A stretch of DNA of 63,713 bases, filler included, from Octopus bimaculoides (taxonomy: Eukaryota), in assembly GCF_001194135.2 (NCBI RefSeq). It is 5 parts of 5 records of this genome, joined end to end, with 100 filler letters (N's around TTAATTAATTAA, not from the genome) between each part and the next. Parts side by side here need not be neighbours in the genome. Positions count along the whole stretch, not along the records: positions 1 to 18,792 come from NC_069008.1; positions 18,893 to 33,493 come from NC_068984.1; 3 more parts are not named here. One strand, 5' to 3'. The position numbers and the translations under genes were made by a program. Position 1 is the stretch's first letter. The number at the start of each line of letters is the position of its first letter. A model generated the notes under the pieces. That model had not been told where the DNA came from and made no database searches. It saw only the letters and a program-made list of their open reading frames with translations. Below are positions 3,630-44,913 of this stretch, one piece after another.

Positions 3630-5473
3630 TTAATTTCGACTTCAGCATCAATCTCAGTCTGCACAAATACTCCACCTTAAATTTTTCTGCCATTTCTTTC
3701 TCCATCAATTTATCCATTTCCAATATCCTCAAGTACTTATAGCCCAGTTCTTCTATCTTCATAACATCCCTCGGCGCTATCGCTCGCCCGTCCATACATT
3801 TGATTTTGCCTCTCTTCAAGACTAACACATCACACTTTTTCAGTCCGAACTTCATTCTGATATCAGCACTGAAAGTATACACCGTATCAACAAGGGAATT
3901 GACTTGGGATTTATCTTTATCCCAAAGTTTGAGGTCATCTATTAATAACAAGTGGTTGGCTTTTTGTTGGTGGCTCTTGAATACATTGCTTTGTTCAAAA
4001 TCAGTCTTAGTGGTATCATGCACACTACAATGATCCATATGCTGTACTCTTTGCGGAAGATTTTCACGAGCACTCACAATGTGAGTCATGCTTTCGACCC
4101 TATTCCCACACGTTCTGCAAGGTCCGAAGCACTTGTGTTGTATATAATCTTTTACACTGAGTTGGTAATCGATGCCTGGTCCTGGGCGACGATGGGTAGG
4201 CTTTCAGTATTCTTTTACACCACCACCATGATGCTTCCTGGTCTTTTAACTTGTTGGTTTCACGGTGGAACTGACCATATAATTCCATATGAATTAGGAT
4301 CTCTTCTCTGTCGTTGTCTGTTCTTGATCGGAATTCATGAGCACTCTCAAGTTCATTTTTGTTAAATCCTTCTGCACTAGCAGGTCTTGTTTGCTGTTTA
4401 CCAAATATTCTGCCATATTTCTTTTGTCACTGTTGATGCACTCATGCACGCTAATCGGTCCACGTCCACCTTTACCTCTCTTCATGTAGAGCTTGTGTAC
4501 ATTTCCCTTCGGGTAGAGGGCGCCATACATTGTCATTGCCTTTCGGGTAGTGTGATCGAGTTGGTTAATATCCGCTTGTGTCCATTTCAGGATGGGACAC
4601 TATAGCGAATATGTTGATAGCTGTCACAAGGTTCCTTGAGTTTATCTTTGTTCTTCATGTACTGTTTATTTTCCTTTTTCTTCTAACCATTCAATTTTCT
4701 GGTTACCACCTCATTACCGAATTCAATTGCCCCAGTTCTTTTCGTGTCTTTCACAGATTTATTCGTATTCTCTTTCTCCAACTTCGTTCTTTGTTTATAT
4801 TTGTTTTTATATATTCAGTTTTTCGCTTGTAGCTACGACATTAGCTGCAGTTATGATTAGCTGCAGCTATGATTAGCTGGTCTGTTTCACTGATGTATTC
4901 TGTTTTGATAAGCTTAAAAAGTAATTTACTTTGCCTGTGGCTTTCTTTACTTGTTTTCTGTCCGTATATCTTACATTTGGCGGTACGTCGTTGTTCCCAT
5001 CAGACATTTTAATTCGCAGTACTTCTAAAATCTCATCTTCATCATTCAAGTCTTAATTCGAATTCTGAGTTCAAACACTACTAAAGTAAAATTTGCCTTT
5101 CATCCTTTCCAAATCAATGAGAAAAGTAGCAATCCAGAGCGGTGAATTGGCGGAAGTGAAGGATTAACATTTAAACTTCTGACAATTTTCGTTCTGTGTT
5201 TAAATCCGCTGTTGGTTATTTGATTGGTAAATTTAATCCGTCGATCGGTTTATAACACTACCTGACAGCTTGGGAGTCATAAATAGACAGATCAAAGACA
5301 AGGAGTAAAATCCGTTTCTTTTCTGGAGACAAGAAGGCAGCCGTGAATATGTGTTTCTACCACTATATGCGTCATCAGCACAGCGTTGTGCTACCTTGAT
5401 TTCAGCGATATACATGACTTAGCGATACATAAGACAGAAAATATTTATGGTCCAGGGTAATTTACGAAATTAG

Positions 5474-5559
5474 AAATCTAAATGAACAAAGTAGGTCAGG
5501 GTGGTAAGTAGCAGGAATTATAAAGAATGTACCCTGATCTACTTTGTTCATTTACATTT
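5474..5559. other. Compact hairpin: 29-bp stem (1 mismatch, 1 G-T), 28-nt loop
   Basis: aaatctaaatgaacaaagtaggtcagggt (5474-5502) pairs with accctgatctactttgttcatttacattt (5531-5559). Confidence 0.8.
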
Positions 5560-5804
5560 GTCGTTGATTTATTGAAATTGTCATCACTTTTTCTCTTCCA
5601 GAAAAGATAAACAAATGAGCACATGTGAGCCTGTGCGAGAGCGCGTTTGGCTTTAATAGTATCATCTACCGATGACAAACATGATGATGATGATGATGAT
5701 GATGACGACAATGATGATGATGATGATGATGACTATGCTGACGACAATGACGACGATGATGGTAACGATGATAACATTTACAAGAAAAATAACACACCAC
5801 TTAC

Positions 5805-5962
5805 TTATATCAGATAACTCTGTGTTTCTTGGCTGAAATCCCAAGTTACGTAATCTCTGCGATGTGTTCAGAGTTTCGTAAATATTCTTCCACAGTTGTT
5901 CTTTACTAATTTCCGCCAAGGCGGTGGCATATACAGTAAATGTTACTGCAATTCTCTCTAAA
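5805..5962 (-). CDS. Ly6/uPAR-SEA-like gene, coding exon 6 (LERIAVTFTVYATALAEISKEQLWKNIYETLNTSQRLRNLGFQPRNTELSDI)
   Basis: Acceptor ttatatttcag, donor GTAAGT; 158 nt, phase 2 to phase 1, open, phase-matched to exon 5. Confidence 0.8.
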
Positions 5963-6891
5963 CTGAAATATAATTGTAAAACATTAGATTAATTATTTTC
6001 AACCTCGCTTGCCAGGTTCTTTTTTAATACATAAATCTGTAACTGGTTCAAAAGAAGATGATATTGCACTAATAGTTGAAACCGAAATGTCACTAACCCT
6101 CTTACTTCGTTTTCACTCACTTTCTCTGGTTCCTTGCCACTCTCATCTATCCCCGAGAGTTCCTCGTAGAATATGAGAGAGAACTGGAATCCAACAAGAC
6201 AACCCACCTTATCTTTACAAATGTATTTCTCACTTTCATACCGACAGTAACCCCTTCCCTATCTCCTGCGTCTTCAATACTCCCTCTCGAAATAGGGAAT
6301 ACTTCATTACACAGCCTACTACCATCATCTTACATCGGCAAATTGCCCACTCTCATCACCCTGCCTAAACTCTTCACTTCTTTCTATTCTCCTTCAGTTA
6401 TAGGGACACTTTAAGGCCTTTTAGTTTTTCACCTTGAAAAGTTGCTTCGTTATTGCTGGGGCCACAAGAACAGCACTAAGTTTAATCTGTATATTGAAAC
6501 CGCACTGAAACCACGTCAAAGAAACATTGTAGCATAAAACAGCCCTCCCGCTTGTCGGGTTTCTGAAACAATCCAATCTATGTTAGCGGATGGAGTGGTC
6601 GTTAAATGAGGATTATAATGCTGATTGTAATGGTGATAACGATGATAGTGATGATAATGATGACGTATGTAAGTTTATGCATATATCGTCATAAGCACAT
6701 AATTAACTCTGTATGTCTGTTAGCCCTTTGTATAAATTTGTATAAATTTGTATATCGTGGCCCAGAAGTACAGCATTGCTATATTTTTTGTAACAGTTAA
6801 TACATACGGTAAAAAACCCCCCAAAAACATTGGAATGTTTTCGGAAAAAATAAACAAAATTTGAATGAAAGCGTTAAATGGTTTTGCTTAC

Positions 6892-6944
6892 CCACAGTAT
6901 TCAACTTTGAATGCTCCTTTCATGTTTGAAAACTCATATTCCAT
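6892..6944 (-). CDS. Ly6/uPAR-SEA-like gene, coding exon 5 (MEYEFSNMKGAFKVEYC)
   Basis: Acceptor aactattgcag, donor GTAAGC; 53 nt, phase 0 to 2, exactly bridges exons 4 and 6. Confidence 0.78.
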
Positions 6945-7022
6945 CTGCAATAGTTGCATGTATATTTAGATAGATAGATAGATAGATAGATAGGTACATA
7001 CATACATACATACATACATACA

Positions 7023-7054
<32 letters not shown>

Positions 7055-7089
7055 CATATGTGTGTGTGCGTGAGTGTCAATGTGTGGGC

Positions 7090-10000
7090 GCGTGTGTGTG
7101 CATGTTATCTGCGACTATTCAGGTGGCTAAATGTTGAACCCATTCCAAGTGCTGAACGTAGCTACAATTGGATACAGGCAGCGTATTCGCCATTATGAAC
7201 ATAGATACATGGAAACAAACGGGAGACCTAGATTAAAACTTCGAAAATTGCCCGAGATGTTTCAGGAAAAAAATTGTATTCTAAGGGCCAATTGCTAAGT
7301 GACATTACATTTCGTTAAAAAAACCTTAAAAGCCAAAGATTTTGTGTTGAATAATACGACAAATTTATTCGGAACTGACTGGATGGAATTATTTAACTTA
7401 TGGACCTCCTTATAAATCTTTTTTTGTAAAAATGTAAATGGTTATTCTGCTAGTACAAACAAGTCGTTAGACGAAGTGAAAACAAATTAAAAAAAGATCT
7501 TTCCCGCGATTCTGTCTAATCAATTAGATTTGTGCACCGAAACGAAGGCGTGGATTCAAATAAAAGCAAACACAATACCGACATTTAACCAAAAGCGAAA
7601 TTTACCGTTCGCAGCGATAGAACTAATAAACTCAGATTTAGAGAAAGAAGAAAAAATTGGAGTTATCCAAAAAGTGGAATATAATCAATGGGCATCACTA
7701 TCTGTGTGTGTTGAGAAAAAGAATAATAAAATAAGAGTGTATGCTAATTTTTCCGCTGGTTTAAACGAATGTTTCAAAACGTTCCACTATCCGCTACTTA
7801 CTCCGGAGGATATTTTTGCGAAATTAAAATGGTAAGTTATTTTCTAAATTGGATTTCTCTAACGCGTATCTACAAATTAGAGTAGACGAGGAATTCTATA
7901 AATACCTAACAATTAACAAATATAAAGGACTGTATAAATACAATAGGTTACCATTTGGGTTAAAAGTCTCACCAGCGATTTTCCAACAGATTATGGATGT
8001 AATGCTAGCGGACTGTGAATTCGCAATTCCATATTTGGACAATATATTCATTAAATGCGAATCTAGTGACCAACACATAGAGCACGTAAAATTTGTTCGA
8101 AAACATTAGGGATTACGGCTTTACTTTGAGTGAAGAAAAGTGTGATTTTTTCTTACCGAAAATAAGATACTAAGGGCAAATCATTGATAGAAATGAACGT
8201 CGACCAGACCCGGAAAGGGCAGACGCAGTTAAAAATATGCTTCCGACAAATATTGCGACCTTAAAAGCTTTTGTGAGACTGGCAAAGTTTTACCAAAATT
8301 ATATTTAAAATATGCATAAGGTGAGGTTTCCACCGAATAAACTGCTAAAAAAGATGTGAAGTGAAATTGGTCGGAAAATTGTTAAAATGCGTTTGAAGGA
8401 ATTTAAAAAAACTATTGACACTTGCACATTTCGATCCTGCAGCGGAAATCGCTATAACTTCAGATGTCTCTAAGTACAGCATAGAAGTAGTAATGCTTCT
8501 ATAGATGGTAAAATGAAGGCGGTAGTTAATGCCTCACGTTCTCTGATATCAGCAGAAAAAAATACAGCTAAATCCCAAAGAGACTCTAACGATTACTTTT
8601 GCTATTAAAATATTTCAGATTTTTACACGGTAGAAATTTTTGACTACAGAATGATCATTGTCCTTTATTATCGATATATGGGTCGAAGACATACTGCTAA
8701 TAGGTTGCAACGCTGGGGTACGATATTACTAAACTATGATGTTAAGATTGAGTATATACCATCCAAGAAATTACGTCACGCTGATTGTTTATCAACGCTG
8801 ATTTTTAAAAAAATGCCGAACCATTTCGATTGCTGCTTTGCGAGCGAAAAATGAATTGAAACATATTTTGTGTAACAATATACATGAACTGCCAGTTACT
8901 TTACAAGACATAAAATTAAAATGGGAAAGTGATGAATTCATTAAAAATGAAAGAAATGCTAATGTCTAAATGAGATAAAAATATTCGCAACACAAATGCG
9001 AAGCATTTCTCAATGTATGACAATGTCTTTATGTATGCACAAAGAGTCGTAGTGCTAGCCACACTACAAAAGCGATTATTAAAGGAATTTCACAGGGATT
9101 TCGAGAATGAAATCGTTAACGAGAAGTTATGTATATTGGCCAACGATGTACCATGACGTTAAAGTATCAGTGAAAGCATGCAGAGGGTTCGCCTTTGCTG
9201 CAAAGGCAGCTACCGCTAAAAGACAACCGTAGCCAAAACAGATATTCCATGTCCAGACTGCATGTTGATTACGCAGATGAACTTAAGGGTGGATATTACC
9301 TTCTTGTGATGGACAGTTTTCCAAAGCGGCCGAAGTGCGTAAATGTAAAAAGCCGACATCTGCGGTTACAATAAGCTTTTTGCACGTACTGATTGCCAGA
9401 TATGCTATTCCTGATACCGCTCTGTCTGATAATGAAACTCAATGTATGTCAGACGAGTTTAGAGAATTATTGTAAAATGTTCCTCATCGAACTTCTCTCC
9501 ACTCTGCCTATCATCCTTGGTCAAGTGGAGCGTTTTGTTGACACTTTCAAGAAGACGTTGTAAAAGGCTAACAATGAAGTAATGGACGCTCTTTCACTTC
9601 AAAAATTTCGAAGTGTGTACCGAGAAACACTTAATCCGAATAACCCGTCTGGAATGTCACACGCAGAATTCAAGTTTGCTAGAAAGGTCAGATCCGTTTT
9701 TGATTATTTGATACAGAATGAAAATAAAATTTAAAAAACGAACAACAAAAATACTTCAAAATTCTTCAAGTGAGGTAACAAATTATTTTTTTAAACCTAT
9801 AGATATGGCAAAGAAAGTTAAATGGGAGGACAGTGTAATCATTAAACTAACAGAAAGAATGATATTCCTGGTAAAAAGGGAAAATATCGACCATAAAATT
9901 ATCATTAACCACCTTCAAAACGATTCACAGAAAAGGCTGTCACGAGAAATGAAATCCCCATGGAAGTATTATACGACATGTTTGAGGTACCAACGCCCAA

Positions 10001-10361
10001 ACAATTTGAAACTACACGTTCTAGCACCAGAAAACGGTAAAGAACGGAAACAGTGGAATTGAACCCTAAGAGATGAAAACTCTGGACTGATCTGAATTCT
10101 CAAAAGTGGAGAAGATAGGGGAGGCTATTCCTAAAAAGAGATGTTCTGGAAGGATTCCAACCAAGTGACTAAAGATGGGATGACTCATTGTTATAAAATA
10201 AAGAATTGTGAGTAATTGGCAGTTCGTATTGGTAAACAGTTCACTGTCAGTCGTTGACTGAGAGCGTTGAGTCTCGTGTAATAGAAATCGTATTGCGTCG
10301 TGTAAATATCGCTTTCCTCCTGCTTCATTAAATTATATATCCAGCACCAGGATACAAAACA
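7090..10361 (+). mobile_element. Decayed Ty3/Gypsy LTR retrotransposon (protease-RT-RNaseH-integrase); possible 3' LTR at about 10141-10361
   Basis: Protease LQLDTGS (DTG 7171-7179). RT ..YLQIRVDEE..YNRLPFGLKVSPAIFQQIMD..IPYLDN. RNaseH and integrase remnants with stops and frameshifts. Purine tract followed by a TG...CA segment. Confidence 0.92.
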
Positions 10362-11169
10362 TTTATACCCAAAACTGGACGAGGAATAAAAATGACTTCA
10401 TGGTCAATCAGTATATGAATTTTTATTGAAGACAACATGCCGAATGGAACAGTTTTTTATTGTCCTGAAAATCTCACATGCAATGAGCATACAAATTTCA
10501 TCTCGTAGTTGTTTAGTATTAGTAAATGGAGTTGAATCTCCGAGGTTCAACGAGTGGAACATAATTTATTAATCCTCATTCTTTTACGACAGTCTCTATA
10601 TGTTTGTGCCCGAGGATATTCTCACGTCTGTATACATGTCCGTATAGACTTACATTCAAAGAACTACATGAATATAAACAAATCAAATAATATATGCTTA
10701 TATATATATATATGTATATATATATATANNNNNNNNNNNNNNNNNNNNNNNNNNNNNNNNNNNNNNNNNNNNNNNNNNNNNNNNNNNNNNNNNNNNNNNN
10801 NNNNNNNNNNNNNNNNNNNNNNNNNNNNNNNNNNNNNNNNNNNNNNNNNNNNNNNNNNNNNNNNNNNNNNNNNNNNNNNNNNNNNNNNNNNNNNNNNNNN
10901 NNNNNNNNNNNNNNNNNNNNNNNNNNNNNNNNNNNNNNNNNNNNNNNNNNNNNNNNNNNNNNNNNNNNNNNNNNNNNNNNNNNNNNNNNNNNNNNNNNNN
11001 NNNNNNNNNNNNNNNNNNNNNNNNNNNNNNNNNNNNNNNNNNNNNNNNNNNNNNNNNNNNNNNNNNNNNNNNNNNNNNNNNNNNNNNNNNNNNNNNNNNN
11101 NNNNNNNNNNNNATATGCGCGCGTGTGTGTGTGTGTGTGTGTAGGCATATATATATATATATATATATA

Positions 11170-11730
11170 CCTAGATATGCTCAACCACCTCATTGAAACA
11201 ATGAAAAACCTACTAGTACCCTTCGATGTAATCAACCTGTAAACTAATATCCCCCACAACCTAGGAATAGAGGCAATCCAGTTGTGGCTAGAGAATCACT
11301 GCAAGGGATTCCCACACCGAATCAAAAAAGAATTCGTAATAGAAGGGCTAAAATTCGTCTTGGAGAATAAACTCTTCGTATTCAGAGACAACTTCTGTCG
11401 GCAGAAATCGGAGACTATGATGGGTATGAGAATGGCTCCCTGCTTTGTTAACCTAATCTTGGGGTACCTAGAAATCACTCTTTATCCTAAGGCACTTAAA
11501 AAATACGGAAACTCGTTCTCTCTTCACATAAAAACTGGAAGAGATATCTAGAGATATCTAGATGGCTGATTCATTCTTTGGCATGAAAGTGTAGAGAGAC
11601 TTTAAAAATTTCAAGCACTTCTAAATGAACTTAACATAAACATTCAATTTACGATGGAATATAGCCAACAACAACTTCTATTACTCCTCATCCTCATTAA
11701 GAAATCCAACATCAAAATAGAAACAGACGC
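11170..11730 (+). mobile_element. Penelope-like element RT remnant
   Basis: LVPFDVINL*TNIPHNLGIEAI..FVLENKLFVF..MGMRMAPCFVNLILGYLE..RYLD..IQFTMEYS matches the PLE RT pattern (FDVxSLYTNIP, MGxxxAP, RYxDD). Confidence 0.8.
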
Positions 11731-12355
11731 ACTTTATTTTACTTGGTTCTTTATTGTATCGCTGGTATTGGTTGAAAATTGGTGGGCAAATGGTAGTTGT
11801 TCGTCATTTTTATATAATGTGTATTATGAGTTAAGAGAAACATCAAAGAAATGATTGATTTGTAGACTTTGGTTTACTCTCACCTTTCCCTTCTCCTGTA
11901 AGCAAATACATATCTACATAGATATATAGAGGCATACATACCCACAGGCATAAGACTAATTCTCAGACAGACGCAAGACAGAACTTGAAAAGAGGATTAA
12001 TGTCATTGATGAGGTCATGAATAGCGACGAAAGAACTTTGGCAAAAAGCAGCCGAATGATTGTTTAACCAGCACATTAAAGATATGATTGAATAGTTAGT
12101 CGGTTAGGTATTGACTAATATTAAAGAAGTGATATTGAATCAGTGCGCGTGTTATTATTATCGGCGTAATAACACTCCCAAGACACAACAATACTAAATC
12201 ATGTCATCTACTAAATGTATTGAATTCATTATGTAATTGATGGATGTATATAATTAATATTGGTTTTTATGTTGTTATAATAAAAAAATTTACATGAAAT
12301 TGAAGGATTGCTCAAAACTTTGTGAAGAATAAATAGAGGAAAAATAGCTACTCAC

Positions 12356-12474
12356 AGCTCTAGATATGTTTTCAGCAGTGTTTCTGTAGTCATTAAATTT
12401 CCTGTTTTGATTGTCAGCGGTTGCAAACGCATCTTTTGTATAAATCACATAGAATACAAATGAATTGGTCCAGC
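12356..12474 (-). CDS. Ly6/uPAR-SEA-like gene, coding exon 4 (WTNSFVFYVIYTKDAFATADNQNRKFNDYRNTAENISRA)
   Basis: Strong acceptor tttctatgtccttccatag, donor GTGAGT; 119 nt, phase 1 to 0. Confidence 0.82.
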
Positions 12475-12544
12475 CTATGGAAGGACATAGAAATAGAACA
12501 GAAACATTGCGATTATAAATGAGACACACGTTACGGTTGCATTG

Positions 12545-12790
12545 AGTGTTATCTTTTATTATTTACTTGCTTCGGGGGATTGGACAACGGCCATACTGGG
12601 GTCCCGCTTTAAAGGATTTAGTCGAACAAATAATCCAAGTACTTAAATTTATAACATGTTAGTTATTCTATTGCGCTCTTGTGCCGAAACGCTAGGTTCC
12701 GGACACGTAAACAAATCAACGCCGGTTGTAAATTGGTAGTGGTGGTGGTGGGGTACACGCAGGAAACAGTCACATAGATACATAGCTACT
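12545..12790 (+). repeat. SINE-like dispersed repeat (family also at 25090-25400, 26270-26540 and 53200-53350)
   Basis: Shared motifs ggccat(a/g)ctgg..cgcctttaaagg..gtcgaacaaat..ccgaaacgctaggtt..gg. Orientation is tentative. Confidence 0.7.
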
Positions 12791-13064
12791 CACACACACA
12801 CACACACACACACATACACGCACACACACACATACACACACACACCACACCTTTGAAACGCTAACCTCTACACATTTTTTCTGTCTGTTTATTTTTCGTT
12901 TTCCCCATTTTTTTTCTTTCCATCCTGTCTGTCAAAGAGCATAGTCTCAAAACGTCAAAGGCTTTTCCATTCTTCCTGAATGTTAAACTAATATACCTGC
13001 TTGTTGTTTCTTCACCTGCCTTCGTCTTTCGCTTTCTGTGAATTTGGTCTAACTATATACATAC

Positions 13065-13097
<33 letters not shown>

Positions 13098-13838
13098 NNN
13101 NNNNNNNNNNNNNNNNNNNNNNNNNNNNNNNNNNNNNNNNNNNNNNNNNNNNNNNNNNNNNNNNNNNNNNNNNNNNNNNNNNNNNNNNNNNNNNNNNNNN
13201 NNNNNNNNNNNNNNNNNNNNNNNNNNNNNNNNNNNNNNNNNNNNNNNNNNNNNNNNNNNNNNNNNNNNNNNNNNNNNNNNNNNNNNNNNNNNNNNNNNNN
13301 NNNNNNNNNNNNNNNNNNNNNNNNNNNNNNNNNNNNNNNNNNNNNNNNNNNNNNNNNNNNNNNNNNNNNNNNNNNNNNNNNNNNNNNNNNNNNNNNNNNN
13401 NNNNNNNNNNNNNNNNNNNNNNNNNNNNNNNNNNNNNNNNNNNNNNNNNNNNNNNNNNNNNNNNNNNNNNNNNNNNNNNNNNNNNNNNNNNNNNNNNNNN
13501 NNNNNNNNNNNNNNAGAGAGACGTTTCAGGACAATCCAGAAAGAGGAAAAAAATCATAATAAAGGATGGGGAAAGGATAGATAGAGAGGGAGAGAGAAGG
13601 GTTTCTTTTCAATTTGATATGGTCAATTCACTGAAACTTTATTACAAAGTATTTTTCTTTATTCTTTCTCTTTTCTATCTTTTTTCTTTTTCCATTATAT
13701 ACCTATAAACACATTTTATCTTCATTTATCATCATCACTATTGATGGATGAATAGAAAACATTTATGTTACACTATTACTGTTGTTTCTATATGGGACTC
13801 TAATGTTAATAACGTGGTACTCATCTGTATAAATGATC

Positions 13839-13869
<31 letters not shown>

Positions 13870-14299
13870 NNNNNNNNNNAACTTACATATACTCGAGAAA
13901 GAATACTAGAACCATTTTACCACTGATTCGGAAAGAGATCTATGCTGACTTTATTTTCCTAATTTATGAATATTGTACGAATTTTTTATGTTTGTTCATG
14001 CAAAACATAGAATTACACAGAATATGGGACTTGGCTATACAGTGTAAAAGAATATACATTTTCATAGGATTTTGAACTTTGAAATCTTTTAAATCCAATG
14101 GAATTCTGGTCTAATAATCTACTGGTTAATATTTGAAGAGTGGTTTTCAAATGCTAATTCAAATTACAATTAATTGTAGTAGTTTTGTTAACATTTTGCT
14201 GTATGTTGTACATTATTTATTTAGAGGCATTTCACTTATTTTGTGTTTATAATAGAATTAGTTGAACTATCAAATGCGATTGTGCAAGGAACGGAGTCT

Positions 14300-14510
14300 G
14301 GCTGCTTCACTCTCATTGTAGGCATAAAAATTGACCTCGGTAAGGAAGCCCTGAATCCAATATGGACCATGATAGAGTATAGGCTATATTTGTATTTTTG
14401 AGATGATGTATGCGACTGGCGAGTGTTGTAGATTTACTATGTCCATCGTATCTAAAATAGCGAATGTCTTCGGACAAAAGTAGTTTAGCATTGTGATTCA
14501 AGAATGGCGT
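14300..14510 (-). mobile_element. Penelope-like GIY-YIG endonuclease 3' remnant
   Basis: STTLASRIHHLKNTNIAYTLSWSILDSGLPY resembles the conserved PLE endonuclease tail (TxLSxHIWxLK..IxWxI). Confidence 0.55.
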
Positions 14511-14740
14511 GTTGCGTAGAAGGAATTATACTAAGTATTAGGAAGGATGAAGCAAGGTATTCTATTTTAATCCGTTATAATCCACTTTCTTTGAACCTTG
14601 TGGTAAATTAGTATCTGAAGTGATACCACGTTTTGCGTGTTTATTCTTTCTTTGTAATACACACGCACACACAGACACTCACAGACACGCACACGCGCAC
14701 ACATCTATCTATCTATCTGCAATGGATAAATATCACTTAC

Positions 14741-14927
14741 CAACAAAATCATTCTTGTTACATAAGTTTCCGGTGCAACAAGCAACACAAGAGGTGCCAT
14801 TTGTCCTCCATTTGTTGCATGTAAATGTATTGTTTCTCTCAGCTTCAACGCATGTTCTGTATGTGCTGCAGGATCTTTCAAACTTCAGTGACACACCTTT
14901 CATTGATATCATATATCTGCACACGGG
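14741..14927 (-). CDS. Ly6/uPAR-SEA-like gene, coding exon 3 (PVCRYMISMKGVSLKFERSCSTYRTCVEAERNNTFTCNKWRTNGTSCVACCTGNLCNKNDFV)
   Basis: Acceptor tttattactacag, donor GTAAGT; 187 nt, phase 0 to 1. Contains the LU-domain signature CCxxxxCN. Confidence 0.92.
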
Positions 14928-15639
14928 CTGTAGTAATAAATATGAAAGCCATATACTACTACCACAACTTTTACTACAACTACTACTGCTAACATCAACA
15001 GCAGCAGCAACAACAACAACAACAGTGAGAACAGCAACAACATCAACAGCAGCAGCAGCAGCAGCAGTAGCAGCAACAGCATCGTATTGAAAGTTAACTA
15101 CGTTAGTAATCTACAAAATTTAGATATTTACCAATTATAAATGATGCATTATAACTTTTTACAATGTCCAACAACATTCAAATACCACACGTAAATACTG
15201 CCATCGGGTATGCAAACCGTATCAACAACAAAACCCAAAAAAATAATTAAAAAAGGCATTAGCCATCATTAAGAATGACAATCTAAATAAAGCGACCAGA
15301 CTTAATTCTCTATGTCTCGCATATATAACAGAAAATGCATCATTGGACACGAGTGGGGTATGTTTCTGTTCTGCATGCATATTTTATAGCAACACTCACA
15401 AAATGATAATACAATATACCCGTATTAAGTTCGGAGAGAAAATAGCCCAGATCTCGATGTATCACTGAACCTCAAGAAATGTCTTAACTTACTAAGACTA
15501 TTTCTCAAACGAAAATGTATCAGAGATTGAGTATGCCAATTAAAAGGAAGGCTACATAACGTAAACTCAAGTATCACAAAACACCAAACAACAATAAAAG
15601 CACTGAGAAGGTGCGATGCAAAGCGGTTCTGTGAAGATG

Positions 15640-17440
15640 CTGTTAAATTTGATCACTGAGAAGGAACAGCTGTGCATTGCAGCGATCTATCCTATGGAAA
15701 CAGGTCTAAACCTGGCCACTTACAGGATGAGTTCCATACATCGATGGTTGGCTGGTTCTAATTGATCAGGGCCTCAAGAAAGCCAGCTTTGTTTTCATCC
15801 TTTTCTATGGTACTTTATTTAAGGTTGCGTTTGTCATGGGTGGATGCTTAGGATCGCTCACGTTTGCACTTCCCTATCGAGATCACCCACTAGTTCCAAC
15901 CTTTTCGCTAATATCTTGGCCAAAATCTTAAACCATGTGTTTAACACAGTCATTGGAGAAAAATTGCGTCCCCTATGAAGGCGTCCATTCTCAGCAGCGT
16001 TACTAATCTTCAGCTCACAGCACTACGAGTTCTACTGTTCTGATATCAGTTGTGGTAAATATCTGTCAAGAGGTTGCTAAATAAATCTGTCATGAATTTG
16101 TAAAATCGGAAGGCAGATCATTGAAACCCAGTTACTTGCGTTTTGGACAAGTGCTCATGGCCTCCATTATTTCAGCTGTCATCGGCTACATATTTCGTCT
16201 GCAAAGAGCTGTGGTAGTCCGATGAGGTAGGTGCTGAAGTCCACTACCACCCTGAATATATCTGCTCAGAAACCAGCAGCTCACACCCTTCCCCATCTAA
16301 CAAAGACCAGGTCGTAGTTTTGCTGTCACGTTGTACCTCTTCTCCACAAGGTCATCGGACAACTTTTACTTTCGTGTTTAAGCGCAGTTGCCATTGCTCT
16401 GACAATATATCCGCTTTCTTTTTCATTGAAGAAATGATAAAGGGCCATTATCACTACTAGCACGTCCCCCGAAATGTTTTGCAACAATCACATCTCCTAG
16501 GCTGGTCATTAATTCCCCCTCCATTCCATTTCTCTCTATCATCGGCTCTGTGATAAACGCTGTCGATTCTGGTCTAATAACTTCTTTAATTAACTAATAA
16601 CTTCTAATAACTCCTTTAATGGCACACCATCAGCGCTTGCTGTTGATTACCCGCATCAACTGCATCCTAAGCAATTCACTAATCTGGCCCTTGTAAATCT
16701 TCGTGAGTTACTAGGCACGCGTTCAACTTCCAGTAACTTGGGCTCCTGTCGTTGGGTCCATTTTAAATCGATCGAGCAGATCGGTAATTTCTGGTCTGTG
16801 TAACCGACTGCTTTGAACTGTGGACATCCTACACTACCCTATCTATTGACCTAACAATCGAGATGTTCCATTCTGGTTGCCCCATGTCCACACAGGCATA
16901 TCAGGTAGGAAGATGTCAGACAGGTGGAAACTTCCGACCGGAATTTCGAGATTTTTATACCGCTTTCTTTGTATTTGTCTCACACAGTCCCATCGTACAT
17001 CTAAAATAGAGTTCCAAATCCCCCTAGTAAAGATCGAAAGTCCTTAGCAAAGCTTCAAAGTGTCAGGTGAAACCATTCCGCTGTCCATCTTGAGGAATAG
17101 GAAGTTACTAACCTGAAAACACTACATTCGTTGCATAAAGTTGGTGCTTTCAGATGTCACTGCAGCATCCAAAACCACAGTACTACTGCCTAGTTCTCGC
17201 AGTAGTGTGCGTAGTTCGATATCTATGGATTTCCATAATACCACTGACAAACTATCGCTCGAAAGCAAGCAGTCCGCGAGTAAAGATATTTCATAATTAA
17301 CGAAAATATTTGCGAGTGTATGCGCTTCAGAGATATTGGTTTCGCTAATGGCTTCTACATATAAACCTAGCGACCTGAGGTCATTCGGGAAGTGACCTTG
17401 TTTCTAAGCTGACTTCAGGCTATGTACATCCAACATTCTG
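15640..17440 (-). mobile_element. Decayed Tx1/L1-clade ORF2 (APE endonuclease plus RT)
   Basis: Minus frames read LDVHSLKSA*KQGHFPNDLRSLGLYVEAISET (APE N-terminus, about 17400-17330) and NFSPMTVLNTWFKILAKILAKRL (RT domain, about 15960-15900). Confidence 0.78.
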
Positions 17441-17798
17441 CTCTGAATAAAGTTACGTTTAACGAGGAAAGAATAGACAACACATCACTTATAAAGCCAT
17501 AGATTCGATTAGATGACACAAAGTGTCCTTGAATAAGGCACTTCACTTCATGATGCTATAGTCTACTCAACTGAAAATGAGTAGCAGCCTGGTATTAGGT
17601 ATCTCTCTCTCCATTCAGTTGTCACATCCTTGATGCTCCACTGACTCAATGATGAGAAAGCTGAGAGCGACATTTTTAGCGGAAGTATGGTACGAACTAT
17701 AAGCGAAAGTGTGGTACAAGATGCCGGATCATACAGACTTGTGAGTGACGTTATGGACATATTATAGCGCAAAGGAAGAAAGAAACATTTCAGTTTAC

Positions 17799-17890
17799 CT
17801 CTATGTTTGAACAGCTTGTCACTTCTGAATCATTGCACATCATCCCCGAACACGTTTGACACTGCAAGTTTCGTTGAAATAACGAGTAAT
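17799..17890 (-). CDS. Ly6/uPAR-SEA-like gene, coding exon 2 (YSLFQRNLQCQTCSGMMCNDSEVTSCSNIE)
   Basis: Acceptor tgttttcttatgttctgtag, donor GTAAAC; 92 nt, phase 1 to 0. LxCxxC is the canonical start of a LU domain. Confidence 0.9.
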
Positions 17891-18754
17891 CTACAGAACA
17901 TAAGAAAACAATAACAATTAGGAGCTAAATAGTGTAATGTATAACAATAAGAAGAAATATTTATTTTGCGATGTAACGTAAATGTATATGTGTTAGTTTT
18001 GGAATTAATGCATATTAGATATATACAATCTATTATTAATGAAAACTATAAATACATTTCATTTTCATCGGAAAATTTCTGTTATGTCACAAATTCAAGT
18101 AAAAAACAAGTTGTTGTTTTCCCTTTAAATTCTGCCCTCACAAAAGATGTGAAAATTATGGAACAACTCGACTGAAAAGTAGTAATTCTTAAGCGGTGAT
18201 TACGCCATGCTGTACAATTACCTCCCTAATAAAACATGAGAATGTAATCGAAATTATGTTGCAACGTACAAAAATATCATTGACCTAATGCGGTAGTCAA
18301 ATCCCGGTATATGTCATTAGGACAGAAAGGAAAGTACAACACAGTTTGATTATGCAATTAATAATAATAATTATTTTTGTTACGGAGAGTGGCGTAACAA
18401 AATATCTTAGAAACAAATTCTGATGGTTCCTTTTATATTCTACATTCATTTCTATGGTGACGACATATGTCCTAGTGGTTGGGGTGTTGCGATCGCGAGG
18501 TGGTGGTTTTAATTCTTAGACCGAGTGGTGCGGTGTTTTCTTTAGCAGAACACTTTATCTCGGGTTGCTCTGCGATCACTTCGACACCCTATTTTTGGTA
18601 CACCGTGTACCTCTCCAGGCAACGTCAATTTGACGGAGAAAGTGAGGTTGTGTACAGCACAAACGTGTGATCATTAGAAACAAATTATTCGGGCAGCTTT
18701 TCAATAAGAAACTGCACAACCATCTTTTTCGAGTTACGAGAGACTACCATCATT

Positions 18755-18792
<38 letters not shown>

Positions 18793-19000
18793 NNNNNNNN
18801 NNNNNNNNNNNNNNNNNNNNNNNNNNNNNNNNNNNNTTAATTAATTAANNNNNNNNNNNNNNNNNNNNNNNNNNNNNNNNNNNNNNNNNNNNATATATAT
18901 ATATATATGTATGTATGTATATATACTTATACATGCGCATTAATATATATAATATATTTATGTGTATGCATGTATATATATATATGTATTTATGTGTGTA

Positions 19001-19060
<60 letters not shown>

Positions 19061-19105
19061 TATATATGTATGTATACATATATGTCTGTGTATACATACA
19101 TATAT

Positions 19106-19137
<32 letters not shown>

Positions 19138-20049
19138 GTGTGTGTGCATGTATATATGTGCGTATGTCTATGTGTATAGATAACGCCCACGCAACTGTTT
19201 ATCGTACGATACGAAGAGCCAATAGTCTCCCCCTCCGCTCTCTCCCCCCACAAATACAGACACCAATGAAAAGCAAATTCTGACATGAATGGCGGACTAC
19301 ACCACACATATGCGTTACACACATTTTCCTTTCATGAATGAAGTGGAAATTATTTGGAGCGAAGGAAAACTACTCCCAGCTGTTAATGACGATCTGGGTA
19401 GATGGAGAGGGGGTGTGGGTGAGGGTAATAGTGATGATGATGGTGGCGGGATGATGGGTCAAAGAATGAATGATGTGGGTTGTTTGTGTGTGTGAAAGGT
19501 GGGTAATAAATCAATCGGTTTATTCAGTTATTTATTGTTATCATTATTATTATTATTATTATTATTATTCATTCATAATCATTATAACAATGATTATGAC
19601 GTTGATATAGATGCTTGGGGTGGGTGTTATAGGGGGCGGGGCGTTAGCTATTCACGAAGTGATGGCAGTGGTGGTGATGATGAAAAGTAGCGGAACGGAG
19701 GGGGAAGAGGAGGAGTAACAGATAGTGTTATGGAGCTATTCGTAAATAGGTTAGTATTAGTGATTGACTTAGTTCAGGTGAGGATGATGATGATAAGGTG
19801 GTGATGGTGGTGGTGGTGGTAGTAGTAGTAGTATGCGGTGTTAGGCAATTCAGGTCGTGGTGTAGTAGTGGAAGTGGAGGAACGGGGCGCATTCTTGGTA
19901 GTTGTGATAGCAGTAAAAAGCAATTGTATAGTATGAGTGAGGGGCTTTTTTTCCATCGTAATTTTTATATTTGGTGCCAGAGAAGGCTATATCTAATTAA
20001 TTAAAAAAATCTACTACTGTTACTACTACTTATAATAATAATAATAATG

Positions 20050-20462
20050 AGTTCAAATTTTGGCACAAGGCCAGCAATTTTGGAAGAGGGGGGGTAAGTC
20101 GATTACGCCGACCACCGTGCTCAACTGGTACTTATTTTATCGATCCCCGAAAGGATGATAGGAAAACACAGACCGTAAAGTCAAATGAAATGCCGCTGTT
20201 TTGCCTGGCGTGCTAACGATTCTGCCAGCAACAACAATAATAATCCCTTCTGCTATAGGCACAAGGCCCGAAATTTTTTGCGGGGGAGGGCTTAAGTCGA
20301 TTACATCGACCCTAGTGTTTCACTAGTACTTAATTTATCGACCCTGAAAGGATGAAAGGTAAAAGTCGAGCTCGGCAGATTTTGAACTCAGATCGTAACG
20401 ACGGGCGGAAATACCGCTAAGCATTTCGTCCAGAGTGCTAATGATTCTGCTAGCTCGCCGCT

Positions 20463-20512
<50 letters not shown>

Positions 20513-20902
20513 TAATATTCCTTTCTGCTGGAGGCACAGGGCCTCAAATTTGTGGGGAGGGTACTAGTCGATTACATCGACCCCAGTGTTTCCCTGCTAC
20601 TTAATTTATCGACCCCGAAAGGATGAAAGGCAGAGTCGACCTTGGCGGAATTTGAAGTCAGATCGTAGCGAGGGGTGAAATACCGCTAAACATTTCGTTC
20701 AGCGTGCTTAACGATTAGTAATTCTTCTGCTTCTTCTTCTAATATATTTCTTTATTGCCCACAGGGGGATAAACATAGAGGGGACAAACGAGGACAGACA
20801 AAGGGATTAAGTCGATTACATCGACTCCAGTGCGTAACTGGTACTTATTTAATCGACCTCGAAAGGGTGAAAGGCAAAGTCGACCTCGGCGGAATTTGAA
20901 CT

Positions 20903-20941
<39 letters not shown>

Positions 20942-21080
20942 CCTTTCTTCTATAGGCACAAGGGCTGAAATTTTGTGGGGAGGGGACTAGTTGACCACAA
21001 TGTTTCATTTGTATTTAATTTATCGACCCCGAAAGGATGAAAGGCAAAGTCAACCTCGACGGAATTTGAACTCAGAACGT
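20050..21080 (-). repeat. Five head-to-tail copies of a tRNA-derived SINE separated by (AAT)n
   Basis: Recurring ggcacaagg..aagtcgattacatcgacc..atcgaccccgaaaggatgaaaggcaaagtcgacctcggcggaatttgaactcag; B-box-like GAGTTCAAATTCC on the minus strand. Confidence 0.88.
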
Positions 21081-21387
21081 AAGCTGCAATGTGTGTGCAT
21101 GGAAAACTCGGAAATGAAAGCTTAATCTCTACAACACTGCATCAACCATCACTTTCCCTAAAACTCATACCTAACGCAGTCTCTTTCACCAAAGACCTCT
21201 CTTTCGGGCATTCCTCCCAAACTTATGAGATATGGAAAGAGAAAGTAAAATAGCAAAAGGAAGTAAGAGAGAGCATGGAAAGAGCTGGAATGGAAATAGG
21301 AAGGCTAAGTGTGGTGAGAGAATAAGAGAGGGAGGGAGGGAGAGTTTTAGTGAAGATTTTCTACCTAAATCACTCAAAATAAGTTAC

Positions 21388-21454
21388 CTTCATTCGTTAA
21401 TAGTAAAAATACCAGAACCAAAACAATATGAATACTCCAAAATGCAGTTTCCAT
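21388..21454 (-). CDS. Ly6/uPAR-SEA-like gene, coding exon 1: signal peptide METAFWSIHIVLVLVFLLLTNE
   Basis: ATG at 21454, hydrophobic h-region, donor GAAG|GTAACT in phase 1, joining exon 2 as GAT (Asp). Confidence 0.85.
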
Positions 21455-26879: not shown

Positions 26880-28050
26880 TAAAAATGTCCAGAACCTGGA
26901 GGAGCATGGAATTTGCATTGATTTTGAGAGCCTGGCGCTGTGCTGAAGGAGATAACCCAAACAACATAATCACAGCTGCACTGAAGAGCAATAGTTACAC
27001 CAGAACATTAGCAGAGATACAACGAAAGAAGCAGGAGTTTACACGCTCCTACGCTCTCATATGATCCCATATCAGCACTCTTGATGCCATCTTTGATAAT
27101 GAACACAGCAAAGATGATAAGGATGGAGGCATGGATGCAGATGAAAGATGTCACCCCCACTTGGTAGACACTCAAGAAAACAAAAAAGATTCAAGCGAGA
27201 AACCTGCCCGGAAAGTAAACCCAAGTGCAAGTTGCCCTACCACCATCAAAACGAAAAATCATGGAGGTGAAAGAGCCAAGAAAGAACAACTAAAAGAAGC
27301 AAAAACTAAAACAAAAACAAAAGATGAAACAGCCAAAGAAAGAAGCAAACCTGACTACCCATATAACAAAACGGATAAAAAGAGACAGTACATACGAATG
27401 TGCAAATTTTACTTGAAAGGTGTTTGCTGGCATGGAGAGGAAGGTGCAAGCTGCCATTTTGCACACCAAAGACTCCGCCACATAAACATGAAACAGGGTG
27501 GAAACCACTTGCCAAAAGGAAAGGACTACGCATCATCTGCCCCAAAATGGATGTATGCAGATGTAGTGCATGCTACAAATCAGACCTATCAACATGTTGT
27601 TGAAAGGGCAGCTTCTGAACAACAATCTTTTTTGTGCATGGCACAAAAGATTGTACAGCAGCTAACTTGGCTACATCAATCTCACAGATAGGACTATCCC
27701 CAATACACAAGACCACCACAGCAAATAGACCTAAGGTGGGCACCACTTGCAACAACACACACATCGCATCGGTGCTCTTACTGAACATCAGGACTGTTAA
27801 CACTTAGTAACAAGACAAAAATCTCTTTCTTGAGAGACCCTGTTGCATGCAATCAAGCTTTATGCATAGCACTTATGGAAACACACCTGAAACCAGATAT
27901 AGCAAATGCATAAATACACATACCACAGTATGTTGTATTACGGACTGACAGGAAAGAAAAGAGTTATGGTGGAGTTGCTATGTACATCCGCAAAGACCTC
28001 ACATGCCAGGTCCTTTTGTCACACACAAATTCAGTATGTGACACACTAAT
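26880..28050 (+). mobile_element. 5' part of a CR1/L2/Jockey-group LINE: ORF1 with CCCH finger, then start of the APE endonuclease
   Basis: ORF 27131-27691 contains CKFYLKGVCWHGEEGASCHFAH. Downstream LLNIRTVNT..CIALMETHLKPDI..VLRTDRK..GGVAMYIRKDL is an APE N-terminus; truncated by microsatellite and gap. Confidence 0.8.
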
Positions 28051-32900: not shown

Positions 32901-33687
32901 AAAATTATTTAAATTCTGCTGAGTTCATTGTTTAAGATTTGTAGACACGTGTACGTGTATCACTGTGTGTAAAACATAAACACACACACACAGAGCTAAT
33001 GACGTTTCTTGCGATATGTGCTTAAATATAAAAATGAATGTAAATAACAAATCAAATTTTAAAAAATATATATATTTTTCTTTTTTGAAGAGACAGCTGG
33101 AAGGAAGGTACATAAGTACATGTTAAACACACATACCCTATTTTTAACATTGCATGCTCTGGCTTAAGTATTAGAGAGTTCCTCAATTCACTCAGTTACC
33201 TGAATACTGAAAATAACAGACATATAATTTAATGGTAGATTTCAAAGCTTTTATCTTAAGACATAAGAAATTTAGAAACGACAAAGACAATAAAGCACAC
33301 ATGGCAGAGATGTAAACGGAACCCTCTCCTGCTTAATTTTTGTTTTTTTAATGGAATCCCACGTTTTAGGCTTATAGAGATTCCGATTCTGAAAAAAAGA
33401 ATTTCAAAATCGCAACTTCAATATTTCAATTCTCCTCCTCCCCATTTCTTCATTTTTCACTTTTTCCGAAATACGTAGAAAAATACGGAGATANNNNNNN
33501 NNNNNNNNNNNNNNNNNNNNNNNNNNNNNNNNNNNNNTTAATTAATTAANNNNNNNNNNNNNNNNNNNNNNNNNNNNNNNNNNNNNNNNNNNNATATATA
33601 TATATATATATATATGGATGTATATAATGTTTGTATCTATATTTGTATGCTTAATTCTAATTGTTTGTATTTTTGTGTTTTTTTCAG

Positions 33688-34612
33688 AGACAAAGACAGC
33701 ATATCAGCGACATCACCCTCATTGGAAGCCCAAACTGAGACAGTGTCCACCAGGTGGCGCAACAACAGTGGCAGCAGCATTGGCGCTGAAATCAAATGCA
33801 ACCAGGTGGCCTCACCAATCCAGTGGTCCCCAGTATCTGGACGTAGTGGCAGTTTTTCTGGGGACGATGTGAAATGCAGCTACATGAAGCATCGGAAAGC
33901 AATGAGGTTGAGCATTGACGAGAAAATCCACGAACATCTGGACAGTCGTAGCACCGACCTGGACAAACCAAGCACCGAAAGTGTTTGCGGTGTTGGTGGC
34001 AGTGGTGGTGTTGGAGGTAGCAGTGATGGTAATGTTGTTGGTGTTGGCAGTGGTGCTGAGCTGAAGAAGTGTAATCGGTCCCAGGAGCATGCGATGAGCT
34101 TGCCACTCGTGAACGCCCAGTGCAAAGGGTCATCAAATGAGAACATGAATTGCTGTTCGTCTGTCACAGGCAAGAGTCTGCCAGGGCTGACGGAAGTTGA
34201 GAACGGGGTCGGCGTCGTCGGGGGCAACGGCTGCTATGGTGGCGTTGGGGTGCAGCACCCACTCTGCTCGCTGGCCGCTGCCAAGCCTCTGTCCCTGATG
34301 AATGCCCGCAGTAACCTGAACAGCTGCTGCGCAATGTCCGATGGGTCGGAGGTGTCCGTCCTCCTGGACGGGCGTCTTGTCGTCCCTGTCAGTGGAGCCT
34401 CTACCAGCCGGAACGGCAGTCGTCCAGCTGGATCCAGCGGCACCACTTCTCCTCCCCCTACTACTACTACTACTACTCCTCCTCCTACTACTACCACTAC
34501 TCCTACTGCTGCAGCTACTGAACAGGACTTTGACGGGCCTTCCCGCTGCCTGCGCAGACGCAGCTGCGAACTGGCCCTGGAGCATGGACGGCTTTCTCCG
34601 AAACTAGAATGA
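33688..34612 (+). CDS. Terminal coding exon (about 307 codons) of an unidentified gene; Ser/Gly/Cys-rich, probably disordered C-terminal tail ending RRRSCELALEHGRLSPKLE*
   Basis: Strong acceptor ttttgtgtttttttcag (ends 33687), phase 2. Long GC-rich open frame in AT-rich surroundings, TGA at 34610-34612. No recognisable domain; upstream exons not found (an unsized gap lies at 33494-33593). Confidence 0.75.
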
Positions 34613-44239: not shown

Positions 44240-44913
44240 CACAAGGGGTAGTCAAAGTTATCTGCACTTTCACCATAACATACCTTTATTATTGTTACAC
44301 TACCTTCTGCATATGCGTGCTTACATCTGGTAGTATTGTGGTCATGGAATCAAAGTTTGAGCTTGATTGTACCATTTTACTTTCTGGCTTTACAGTGTAA
44401 GCATGGCCACTCCACTAGCAAAGTGCACTGAAGAAGAAGAACAAAGAGCAGTGATCCGATTTCTGTGGTTGGAAGGTGTGTCAAGTGCTGAAATTCATCG
44501 GAAGCTTTTAGCACAATACGAGGACAGTGCACTACCATGTAGAAGTGTGTATGAGTGGATCGAGAAGTTTAAAAGTGGCCAGACAAGCATGTTGCATGAA
44601 AAGGGAGTAGGGCGCCCATCAACCTCCACCACTGATGAGAAGATTCAGCAAGCTTGAGAGATGGTAATGGTGAACTGGTTCACCATTATCATGTCTCAGA
44701 TCACTGCTCTTTGTTCTTCTTTGGTGCACATTGCTAGTGGAGTGACCATGCTTACACTGTAAAGTCAGAAGAAAAATAGTGTGATCAGGCTAAAACATCG
44801 ATCATGTGACCACAATAGTACCAACTATAAACACACATGTGCAGAAGGCAGTGTGACAATAATAAAGATATGTTATGGCGAAAGTGTGGATAATTTTTGA
44901 ATTCCCCTCACAC
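44240..44913. mobile_element. Mariner-derived foldback element (two 5' ends in inverted orientation)
   Basis: From ATG 44403: MATPLAKCTEEEEQRAVIRFLWLEGVSSAEIHRKL..VYEWIEKFKSG..GRPSTS (mariner paired-like HTH). About 44700-44913 is a diverged reverse complement of 44240-44470. Confidence 0.8.

Follow-up and report, generated by a model that had tools for sequence, protein, structure and literature searches.

How much of a gene does a set of short, widely scattered exons represent? The question is raised by a stretch of Octopus bimaculoides DNA of 63,713 nucleotides (nt; the window, along the whole of which positions are counted), in which a first-pass annotation had placed a hidden six-exon gene for a small secreted protein, with a three-finger (Ly6/uPAR, or LU) domain fused to a SEA-like module. 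Exons 2-6 of that annotation are real and its domain guesses are supported, whereas its gene boundaries are wrong and the family is already known. Exons 2-6 belong to the catalogued gene LOC106878117, and comparison with its relatives indicates that the LU-SEA pair forms a cassette inside the proteins of an adhesion G protein-coupled receptor (GPCR) family with the order LRR-LU-SEA-HormR-GAIN/GPS-7TM (LRR, leucine-rich repeat; 7TM, seven-transmembrane domain).

Exons 2-6 are joined at the predicted sites

Six-frame matching placed all six predicted segments on the minus strand (Table 1). The introns of the six-segment model are all GT-AG, with phases 1,0,1,0,2,1, and splicing yields 225 stop-free codons. 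This frame carries N-glycosylation sequons at 42, 85, 96, 151 and 205, the same five that had been annotated, and 13 cysteines rather than the 12 originally counted, with 12 in the LU domain and one in the second module. Contigs of two runs (X1 and X2, which are RNA by guess only) and reads of two raw RNA runs (X12 and X13) were aligned to window positions 4000-18780. The junctions between exons 2 and 3, 3 and 4, and 5 and 6 are present as joints in the contigs of both X1 and X2, while the junction between exons 4 and 5 is represented in X1 record 1, which carries exons 6, 5 and 4 as contiguous pieces with zero mismatches. Exons 2-6 are real, and are joined in these public contigs at the predicted GT-AG sites, with the same junctions recurring, at few differences, in the contigs of a second organism (X2). 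A further 339 nt stand ahead of exon 2 in X1 record 5.

The annotated gene had ended at exon 6. That exon closes with a GTAAGT donor and contains no stop codon, and the contigs run on past it, by 1,211 nt in X1 record 1 and by 432 nt in X2 record 6, neither extension being placed within 4000-18780. Because a phase-1 donor without a stop is followed by so much additional sequence in X1 record 1, we conclude that the gene continues beyond exon 6, outside this stretch. The GT-AG borders, the phases, the open frame and four of the five predicted junctions have therefore held up, whereas the count of six exons and the gene end at exon 6 have not.

The exons form the middle of LOC106878117

Of 11 candidates in a search with exon 3, nine proteins were matched, every one of them from Octopus, and exons 2-6 correspond to 202/202 residues of A0A0L8GAF6 (P0005) from O. 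bimaculoides. Its cluster mates, XP_014782718.1 (LOC106878117) and A0A0L8GAF0, are likewise named O. bimaculoides. The three catalogued proteins of the cluster (P0005, P0014 and P0015) all start with an LRR C-terminal cap, preceded by LRRs in one of them. The idea of a stand-alone two-domain protein is not supported, since the exons are the middle of a catalogued gene, with the LRR cap before them and protein sequence continuing past exon 6. Nor does the signal-peptide first exon placed at the upstream end (predicted exon 1) occur in any of the three proteins; the LRR cap stands there instead.

The catalogued models stop 16 residues after the SEA-like domain, and the two long ones, A0A0L8GAF6 and XP_014782718.1, share this final 16-residue tail identically. 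The isoform A0A0L8GAF0 skips exon 5, which shifts the frame, such that residues 183-200 of P0015 match positions 5962-5909 in another frame; the existence of an exon-skipping isoform suggests that the catalogued models were built from transcripts. GAIN/GPS and class-B 7TM domains are absent both from the window and from the three catalogued proteins.

Two candidate ends for the gene within the window were rejected. A six-residue match to the tail at 4556 lies inside an apparent long interspersed nuclear element (LINE), and has neither an AG acceptor nor a joint. Reading through exon 6 (5804-5670, minus strand) gives a hydrophobic tail resembling a membrane anchor, which was discarded because it is encoded by an (ATC)n microsatellite and because at 5805 X1 record 1 departs from the genomic sequence.

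A predicted Lynx2-type three-finger domain precedes a SEA-like domain

The LU domain contains 12 cysteines with the spacing 2,4,7,6,16,5,10,9,2,0,4, ending in CCx4CN, which include the invariant cysteine set of the fold and align with those of Lynx2. In a second modelling run, built on 50 sequences, the domain was predicted with local confidence (pLDDT) of about 59-79, with a helix in loop III; loops I and III are expected to contain additional disulfide pairs. Lynx2 (6zss) is the best Foldseek match to this model (E 0.003) and is also the top match in VIA (Z 7.3, root mean square deviation (rmsd) 3.1, 80 residues aligned), where the first 24 matches are all three-finger or TGF-beta-receptor folds. 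Pfam LU gave no match on P0005, and Atlas matches for this domain, being below 0.9, were treated as leads only. The three-finger call is upheld by these comparisons, and the domain is predicted to adopt a three-finger fold of the Lynx2/Lypd6 type. Its setting is not that of a classical single-domain Ly6 protein, in which a signal peptide and the LU domain are followed by a stop or a glycosylphosphatidylinositol (GPI) signal; here the domain is spliced to exons 4-6 and has an LRR cap before it.

The second module was modelled within P0014 at a pLDDT of about 70-89 as strand-helix-strand-strand-helix, the pattern that had been proposed for it, and the model forms an alpha/beta sandwich of ferredoxin-like type, about 100-110 residues long. 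SEA domains are among its top structural matches (2e7v, Z 8.3, rmsd 3.1, 89 aligned; 1ivz, Z 7.7), and it also matches residues 328-507 of the zebrafish Gpr126 ectodomain (6v55, Z 7.5). The clusters that come first in Atlas are SEA clusters, at 0.91-0.92, but with 159 shared features. The position of the module before HormR in paralogs favours the SEA assignment. By eye, the alignment shows neither a GSVVV/GSIVA motif nor a furin motif (motifs from PMC6954182) in the loop between strands 2 and 3, unlike the cleavable SEA domains of MUC1, GPR110/116 and human GPR126. We therefore describe the module as a predicted SEA-like domain of ferredoxin fold that carries no cleavage motif.

The LU-SEA cassette recurs in an octopus receptor family

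A search with the cassette gave 33 matches among 201 candidates, of which 31 are named Octopus and many are called ADGRG6-like. An LU or SEA domain is present in 76/204 collected proteins, a number that includes isoforms and cluster mates and is not one of 76 genes. The LRR cap stands ahead of LU in 69 of the 72 LU carriers (66 by motif, three more by profile), and the other three look like prediction fragments. The complete order cap-LU-SEA-HormR-GPS-7TM is found in 16/76. Pfam GPS and 7tm_2 were found in 8/10 and 3/7 scanned cassette relatives; the transmembrane profile is contaminated by LRR segments, such that labels which it placed at the N terminus were interpreted as LRR, and the 7TM domain was taken from Pfam. 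An H-L-T cleavage motif is present in eight of 12 GPS motifs.

Individual members depart from this order. LU is repeated in P0024, P0025 and P0149 and lacking in P0175 and P0085, while SEA is repeated in P0026 and P0060 and lacking in P0013 and P0023. In LOC106878117 each of the two modules is flanked by phase-1 introns, and we infer from these boundaries that relatives could duplicate or drop either module in frame, although annotation errors may account for some of the variants. Among Logan records there are divergent members that are complete (P0165, with 34% identity over 254 residues, and P0208), and a search from a divergent member returned only two Logan proteins among 377 candidates. 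The representative profile search included LRR columns, so that unrelated LRR proteins make up the greater part of its 150 rows and the range of the family is not bounded by it. A tree gave weak support for the position of LOC106878117 and was not used.

Two further observations concern members of the family. Several of the collected proteins that lack a 7TM domain (P0028, P0030-P0032, P0047, P0053, P0060 and P0175) end in what appears to be the last exon of complete receptors, jumping over GAIN-7TM. The complete member P0056 has a C-terminal Death domain (Pfam E 3.3e-6).

What the LOC106878117 copy would encode

We consider it somewhat probable that the product of LOC106878117 is a secreted LRR-LU-SEA ectodomain from the octopus adhesion-GPCR expansion, without GAIN and 7TM. 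In the complete relatives, by analogy with the general model of adhesion GPCRs, in which tethered agonists and force sensing are described (PMC6667449 and PMC6954182, in the portions covered), the LRRs and LU would bind a cell-surface or matrix partner, SEA would be an uncleaved spacer through which force or a change of shape reaches HormR-GAIN, and activation of the 7TM domain would fall to the GPS tethered agonist. The LOC106878117 copy would keep the binding end. Because that end is kept and the models stop just after SEA, in a tail similar to that of a paralog (P0026, where the residues after the last SEA are 63% alike over 19 residues), the product would be a soluble competitor or ligand of the membrane paralogs and not a signalling receptor. 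Soluble N-terminal forms arise from 55.6% of the mouse adhesion-GPCR genes analysed in the covered part of PMC6667449.

A number of results weigh against this reading. The LRR-cap exon was not found in the window, which extends 45.8 kb upstream (best E for the cap profile, 2.7); with the cap outside the window the upstream intron would exceed 45 kb, and the link between cap and exons depends on the catalogued models, from which a signal peptide is absent. The tail exon was not found in the window either, and the 1,211 nt of X1 downstream sequence could also code for HormR-GAIN. Fragments are evident among many of the family models, with P0012 and P0022, for example, being parts of P0023. Reads at least 99% alike number 1/1284 in X12 and 5/1072 in X13, most of the remainder (1215/1284 and 978/1072) being 90-95% alike and representing paralogs and repeats. 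As to the domains, LU was left unfolded, and poor, in the first model (P0014), its later model reaches only moderate pLDDT with no Foldseek match at E<=0.001, and exon 3 alone falls short of the Pfam CL0117 cut-off (UPAR_LY6_2, 16.8 against 31.5 bits, E 0.008). The second module likewise gave nothing in Foldseek at E<=0.001, does not reach the Pfam SEA cut-off in P0005 or the scanned relatives, and is matched as well by non-SEA ferredoxin folds as by SEA (MscS domain, Z 8.6). The ligand, the secretion and the decoy action of the product are putative.

A second interpretation takes the exons as the leading part of an adhesion GPCR with the complete order LRR-LU-SEA-HormR-GAIN-7TM, places the other exons beyond the window, and treats the short tail as a minor splice form or an artefact of annotation. 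The phase-1 end of exon 6 falls where complete paralogs pass into HormR, complete receptors do make up 16 of the 76 relatives, models in the family are often fragmented, and the X1 contig leaves room for about 400 further codons. Set against this, two annotation sets finish at the same tail, which is conserved in a paralog, a profile search found no HormR, GPS or 7TM exons in the 5.8 kb downstream, and the gene does not appear in the GPCR table of Ritschard 2019, though that table requires a 7TM match. A complete receptor is a serious possibility, if a less probable one than the secreted ectodomain. A decaying, transcribed partial duplicate of a receptor gene, encoding no functional protein, we regard as very improbable: partial duplicates are common in the family, the depth of the X1 contigs is low (about 29-33) and the two raw RNA runs hold almost no matching reads, but the 202 codons are free of stops and frameshifts, all 12 LU cysteines are kept, and the junctions are shared with the second organism.

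There remains the small secreted protein of the first-pass annotation, with signal peptide, LU and SEA, starting at predicted exon 1, whether this is the principal form or one driven by an internal promoter. Predicted exon 1 lies 3.5 kb from exon 2, has an open frame and a phase-matched donor, and is the most hydrophobic (3.89) among the 37 loose candidates, mostly microsatellites, that the 42,561 non-N bases upstream contain; the failure to find the LRR-cap exon upstream is in keeping with such a start, as are the many 5' start exons of mouse adhesion-GPCR genes (PMC6667449, in the part covered). However, at least one other non-microsatellite candidate (27788) passes the same filter, predicted exon 1 begins 0/3 catalogued proteins of the cluster, the LU carriers have the LRR cap before LU or appear to be fragments, and paralog reads in X12 and X13, read by hand, run from the exon-2 acceptor into an apparent P0023 cap end. 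A protein of this kind is improbable, and predicted exon 1, plausible-looking and without outside support, is probably not the main upstream exon. A five-residue match to the end of the LRR-cap exon, at 21443 (minus strand, other frame), was considered as a decayed LRR-cap exon inside predicted exon 1 and rejected; the cap profile is empty there and the match is probably due to chance.

Other features of the window

Four plus-strand features accompany the exons (Table 1). The long open frame after the filler gap is possibly an exon of another gene, within the long upstream intron. The frame with the weak zinc finger resembles a remnant of the first open reading frame of a LINE. The remaining two are the mariner remnant and an apparent decayed long terminal repeat (LTR) retrotransposon, identified by eye.

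Table 1. Positions, along the window, of the predicted exons and of the other features described in the text.
Feature	Position	Strand	Content
Predicted exon 1	21388..21454	-	ATG, hydrophobic 22 codons, phase-1 donor
Exon 2	17799..17890	-	Linker, then start of LU domain (4 Cys); entered in phase 1, left in phase 0; 100% to P0005
Exon 3	14741..14927	-	Remaining LU domain with 8 Cys, closing in CCx4CN; left in phase 1
Exon 4	12356..12474	-	Predicted first strand and first helix of SEA-like domain
Exon 5	6892..6944	-	Predicted last part of helix 1, then strand 2, in SEA-like domain
Exon 6	5805..5962	-	Predicted strand 3, helix 2 and end of SEA-like domain; phase-1 donor
Apparent LTR-retrotransposon pol region	about 7460-9700	+	Decayed; in intron between exons 5 and 4
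Open frame with zinc finger	27065-27691	+	208 residues, weak CCCH zinc finger (E 0.008-0.013)
Long open frame	33542-34612	+	About 338 stop-free codons after N gap, Ser/Gly/Thr-rich, no Pfam match above cut-off
Mariner transposase remnant	44367-44657	+	Mos1-type HTH_48 (E 1.5e-8)

Relation to known receptors

In the portions covered of Ritschard 2019 (PMC6408891), the axial nerve cord, the suckers and the skin are the tissues in which group 3 of the octopus adhesion GPCRs is enriched; LRRs occur in 5/22 members and a Death domain in one. When family accessions were looked up in its table, 2/4 were present, namely the cassette carriers A0A0L8FLR8 (P0194) and A0A0L8HDZ7 (P0201), both listed in group 3; one of the two is expressed mostly in skin (0.71) and sucker (0.17). 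The InterPro table of the same source, in the part covered, holds no entries for SEA, Ly6, Ly-6, uPAR or snake. Group 3 (database name ADGRG6-like) and LOC106878117 appear to belong to the same family, whereas LOC106878117 itself is unlisted and its models are without GPS and 7TM.

The nearest published layouts each share one part of the ectodomain. In vertebrate ADGRG6/GPR126 a SEA domain, overlooked in sequence searches, directly precedes HormR-GAIN-7TM (PMC6954182, in the part covered), an order that the octopus family, with its predicted SEA domain, shares; the model aligns to 6v55. ADGRG6/GPR126 differs in carrying CUB and pentraxin domains where the octopus family has LRR-LU, and neither CUB nor pentraxin gave a Pfam match in the complete relatives scanned. 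An LU domain in a GPCR ectodomain is described for starfish LyAr2/LyAp2 (PMC9410279 and PMC11595613, as far as covered), and it is Lynx2/LYPD6-like, as is the octopus one. LU-containing adhesion GPCRs are also reported from molluscs and arthropods in PMC13719153, a survey of 2026, where a figure legend lists LRR, GPS and 7TM; parts 1-3 of 4 of its text name no octopus, no cephalopod and no SEA domain, and its figures or supplements may already show a member of the octopus family. Lynx2 and Lypd6 have six disulfides (PMC7582953, in the part covered). Lynx2/LYPD1 and LYPD6 share with the octopus LU domain its 12 cysteines, the additional pairs that loops I and III are expected to hold, and the loop III helix, but they are single GPI-anchored domains, whereas the octopus domain is internal, between LRR cap and SEA. 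The likeness implies no action on acetylcholine receptors or Wnt.

The view that the architecture belongs to no described family is thus correct only in part. The gene is catalogued and its cassette lies inside an adhesion-GPCR family, and both LU domains in adhesion GPCRs of invertebrates and a SEA domain ahead of HormR (GPR126) are already in print; the literature searched, which covers few subscription journals, holds no description of an LRR-LU-SEA combination in adhesion GPCRs, nor of LU directly followed by SEA there. What is new is the explicit LRR-LU-SEA layout of the ectodomain in the octopus receptor expansion, together with a hint of secreted members. As each domain pairing, like the gene and its family, is separately known, the gain is one of annotation and hypothesis and not a new class.

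Arms, suckers and skin are the sites with which this octopus-specific receptor expansion has been linked (PMC6408891). The layout fills an unannotated gap of 200 residues in its ectodomain, and gives a testable structure in which a GPR126-like SEA-HormR-GAIN base would carry a tip of LRRs and a Lynx2-like three-finger domain. More speculatively, and we hold this as a tentative and rather unlikely proposal, octopus may have built a mix-and-match system of recognition from a single LRR-LU-SEA adhesion receptor, in which phase-1 cassettes would be duplicated, skipped or shortened to yield many membrane receptors together with true secreted ectodomains, the LOC106878117 product among them; the secreted ones, as decoys or ligands, would tune adhesion and touch signalling in skin, suckers and arm nerve cord, and the Lynx2-like LU domain would be the binding unit. 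If the copies without a 7TM domain are real proteins, the family would have built-in soluble regulators.

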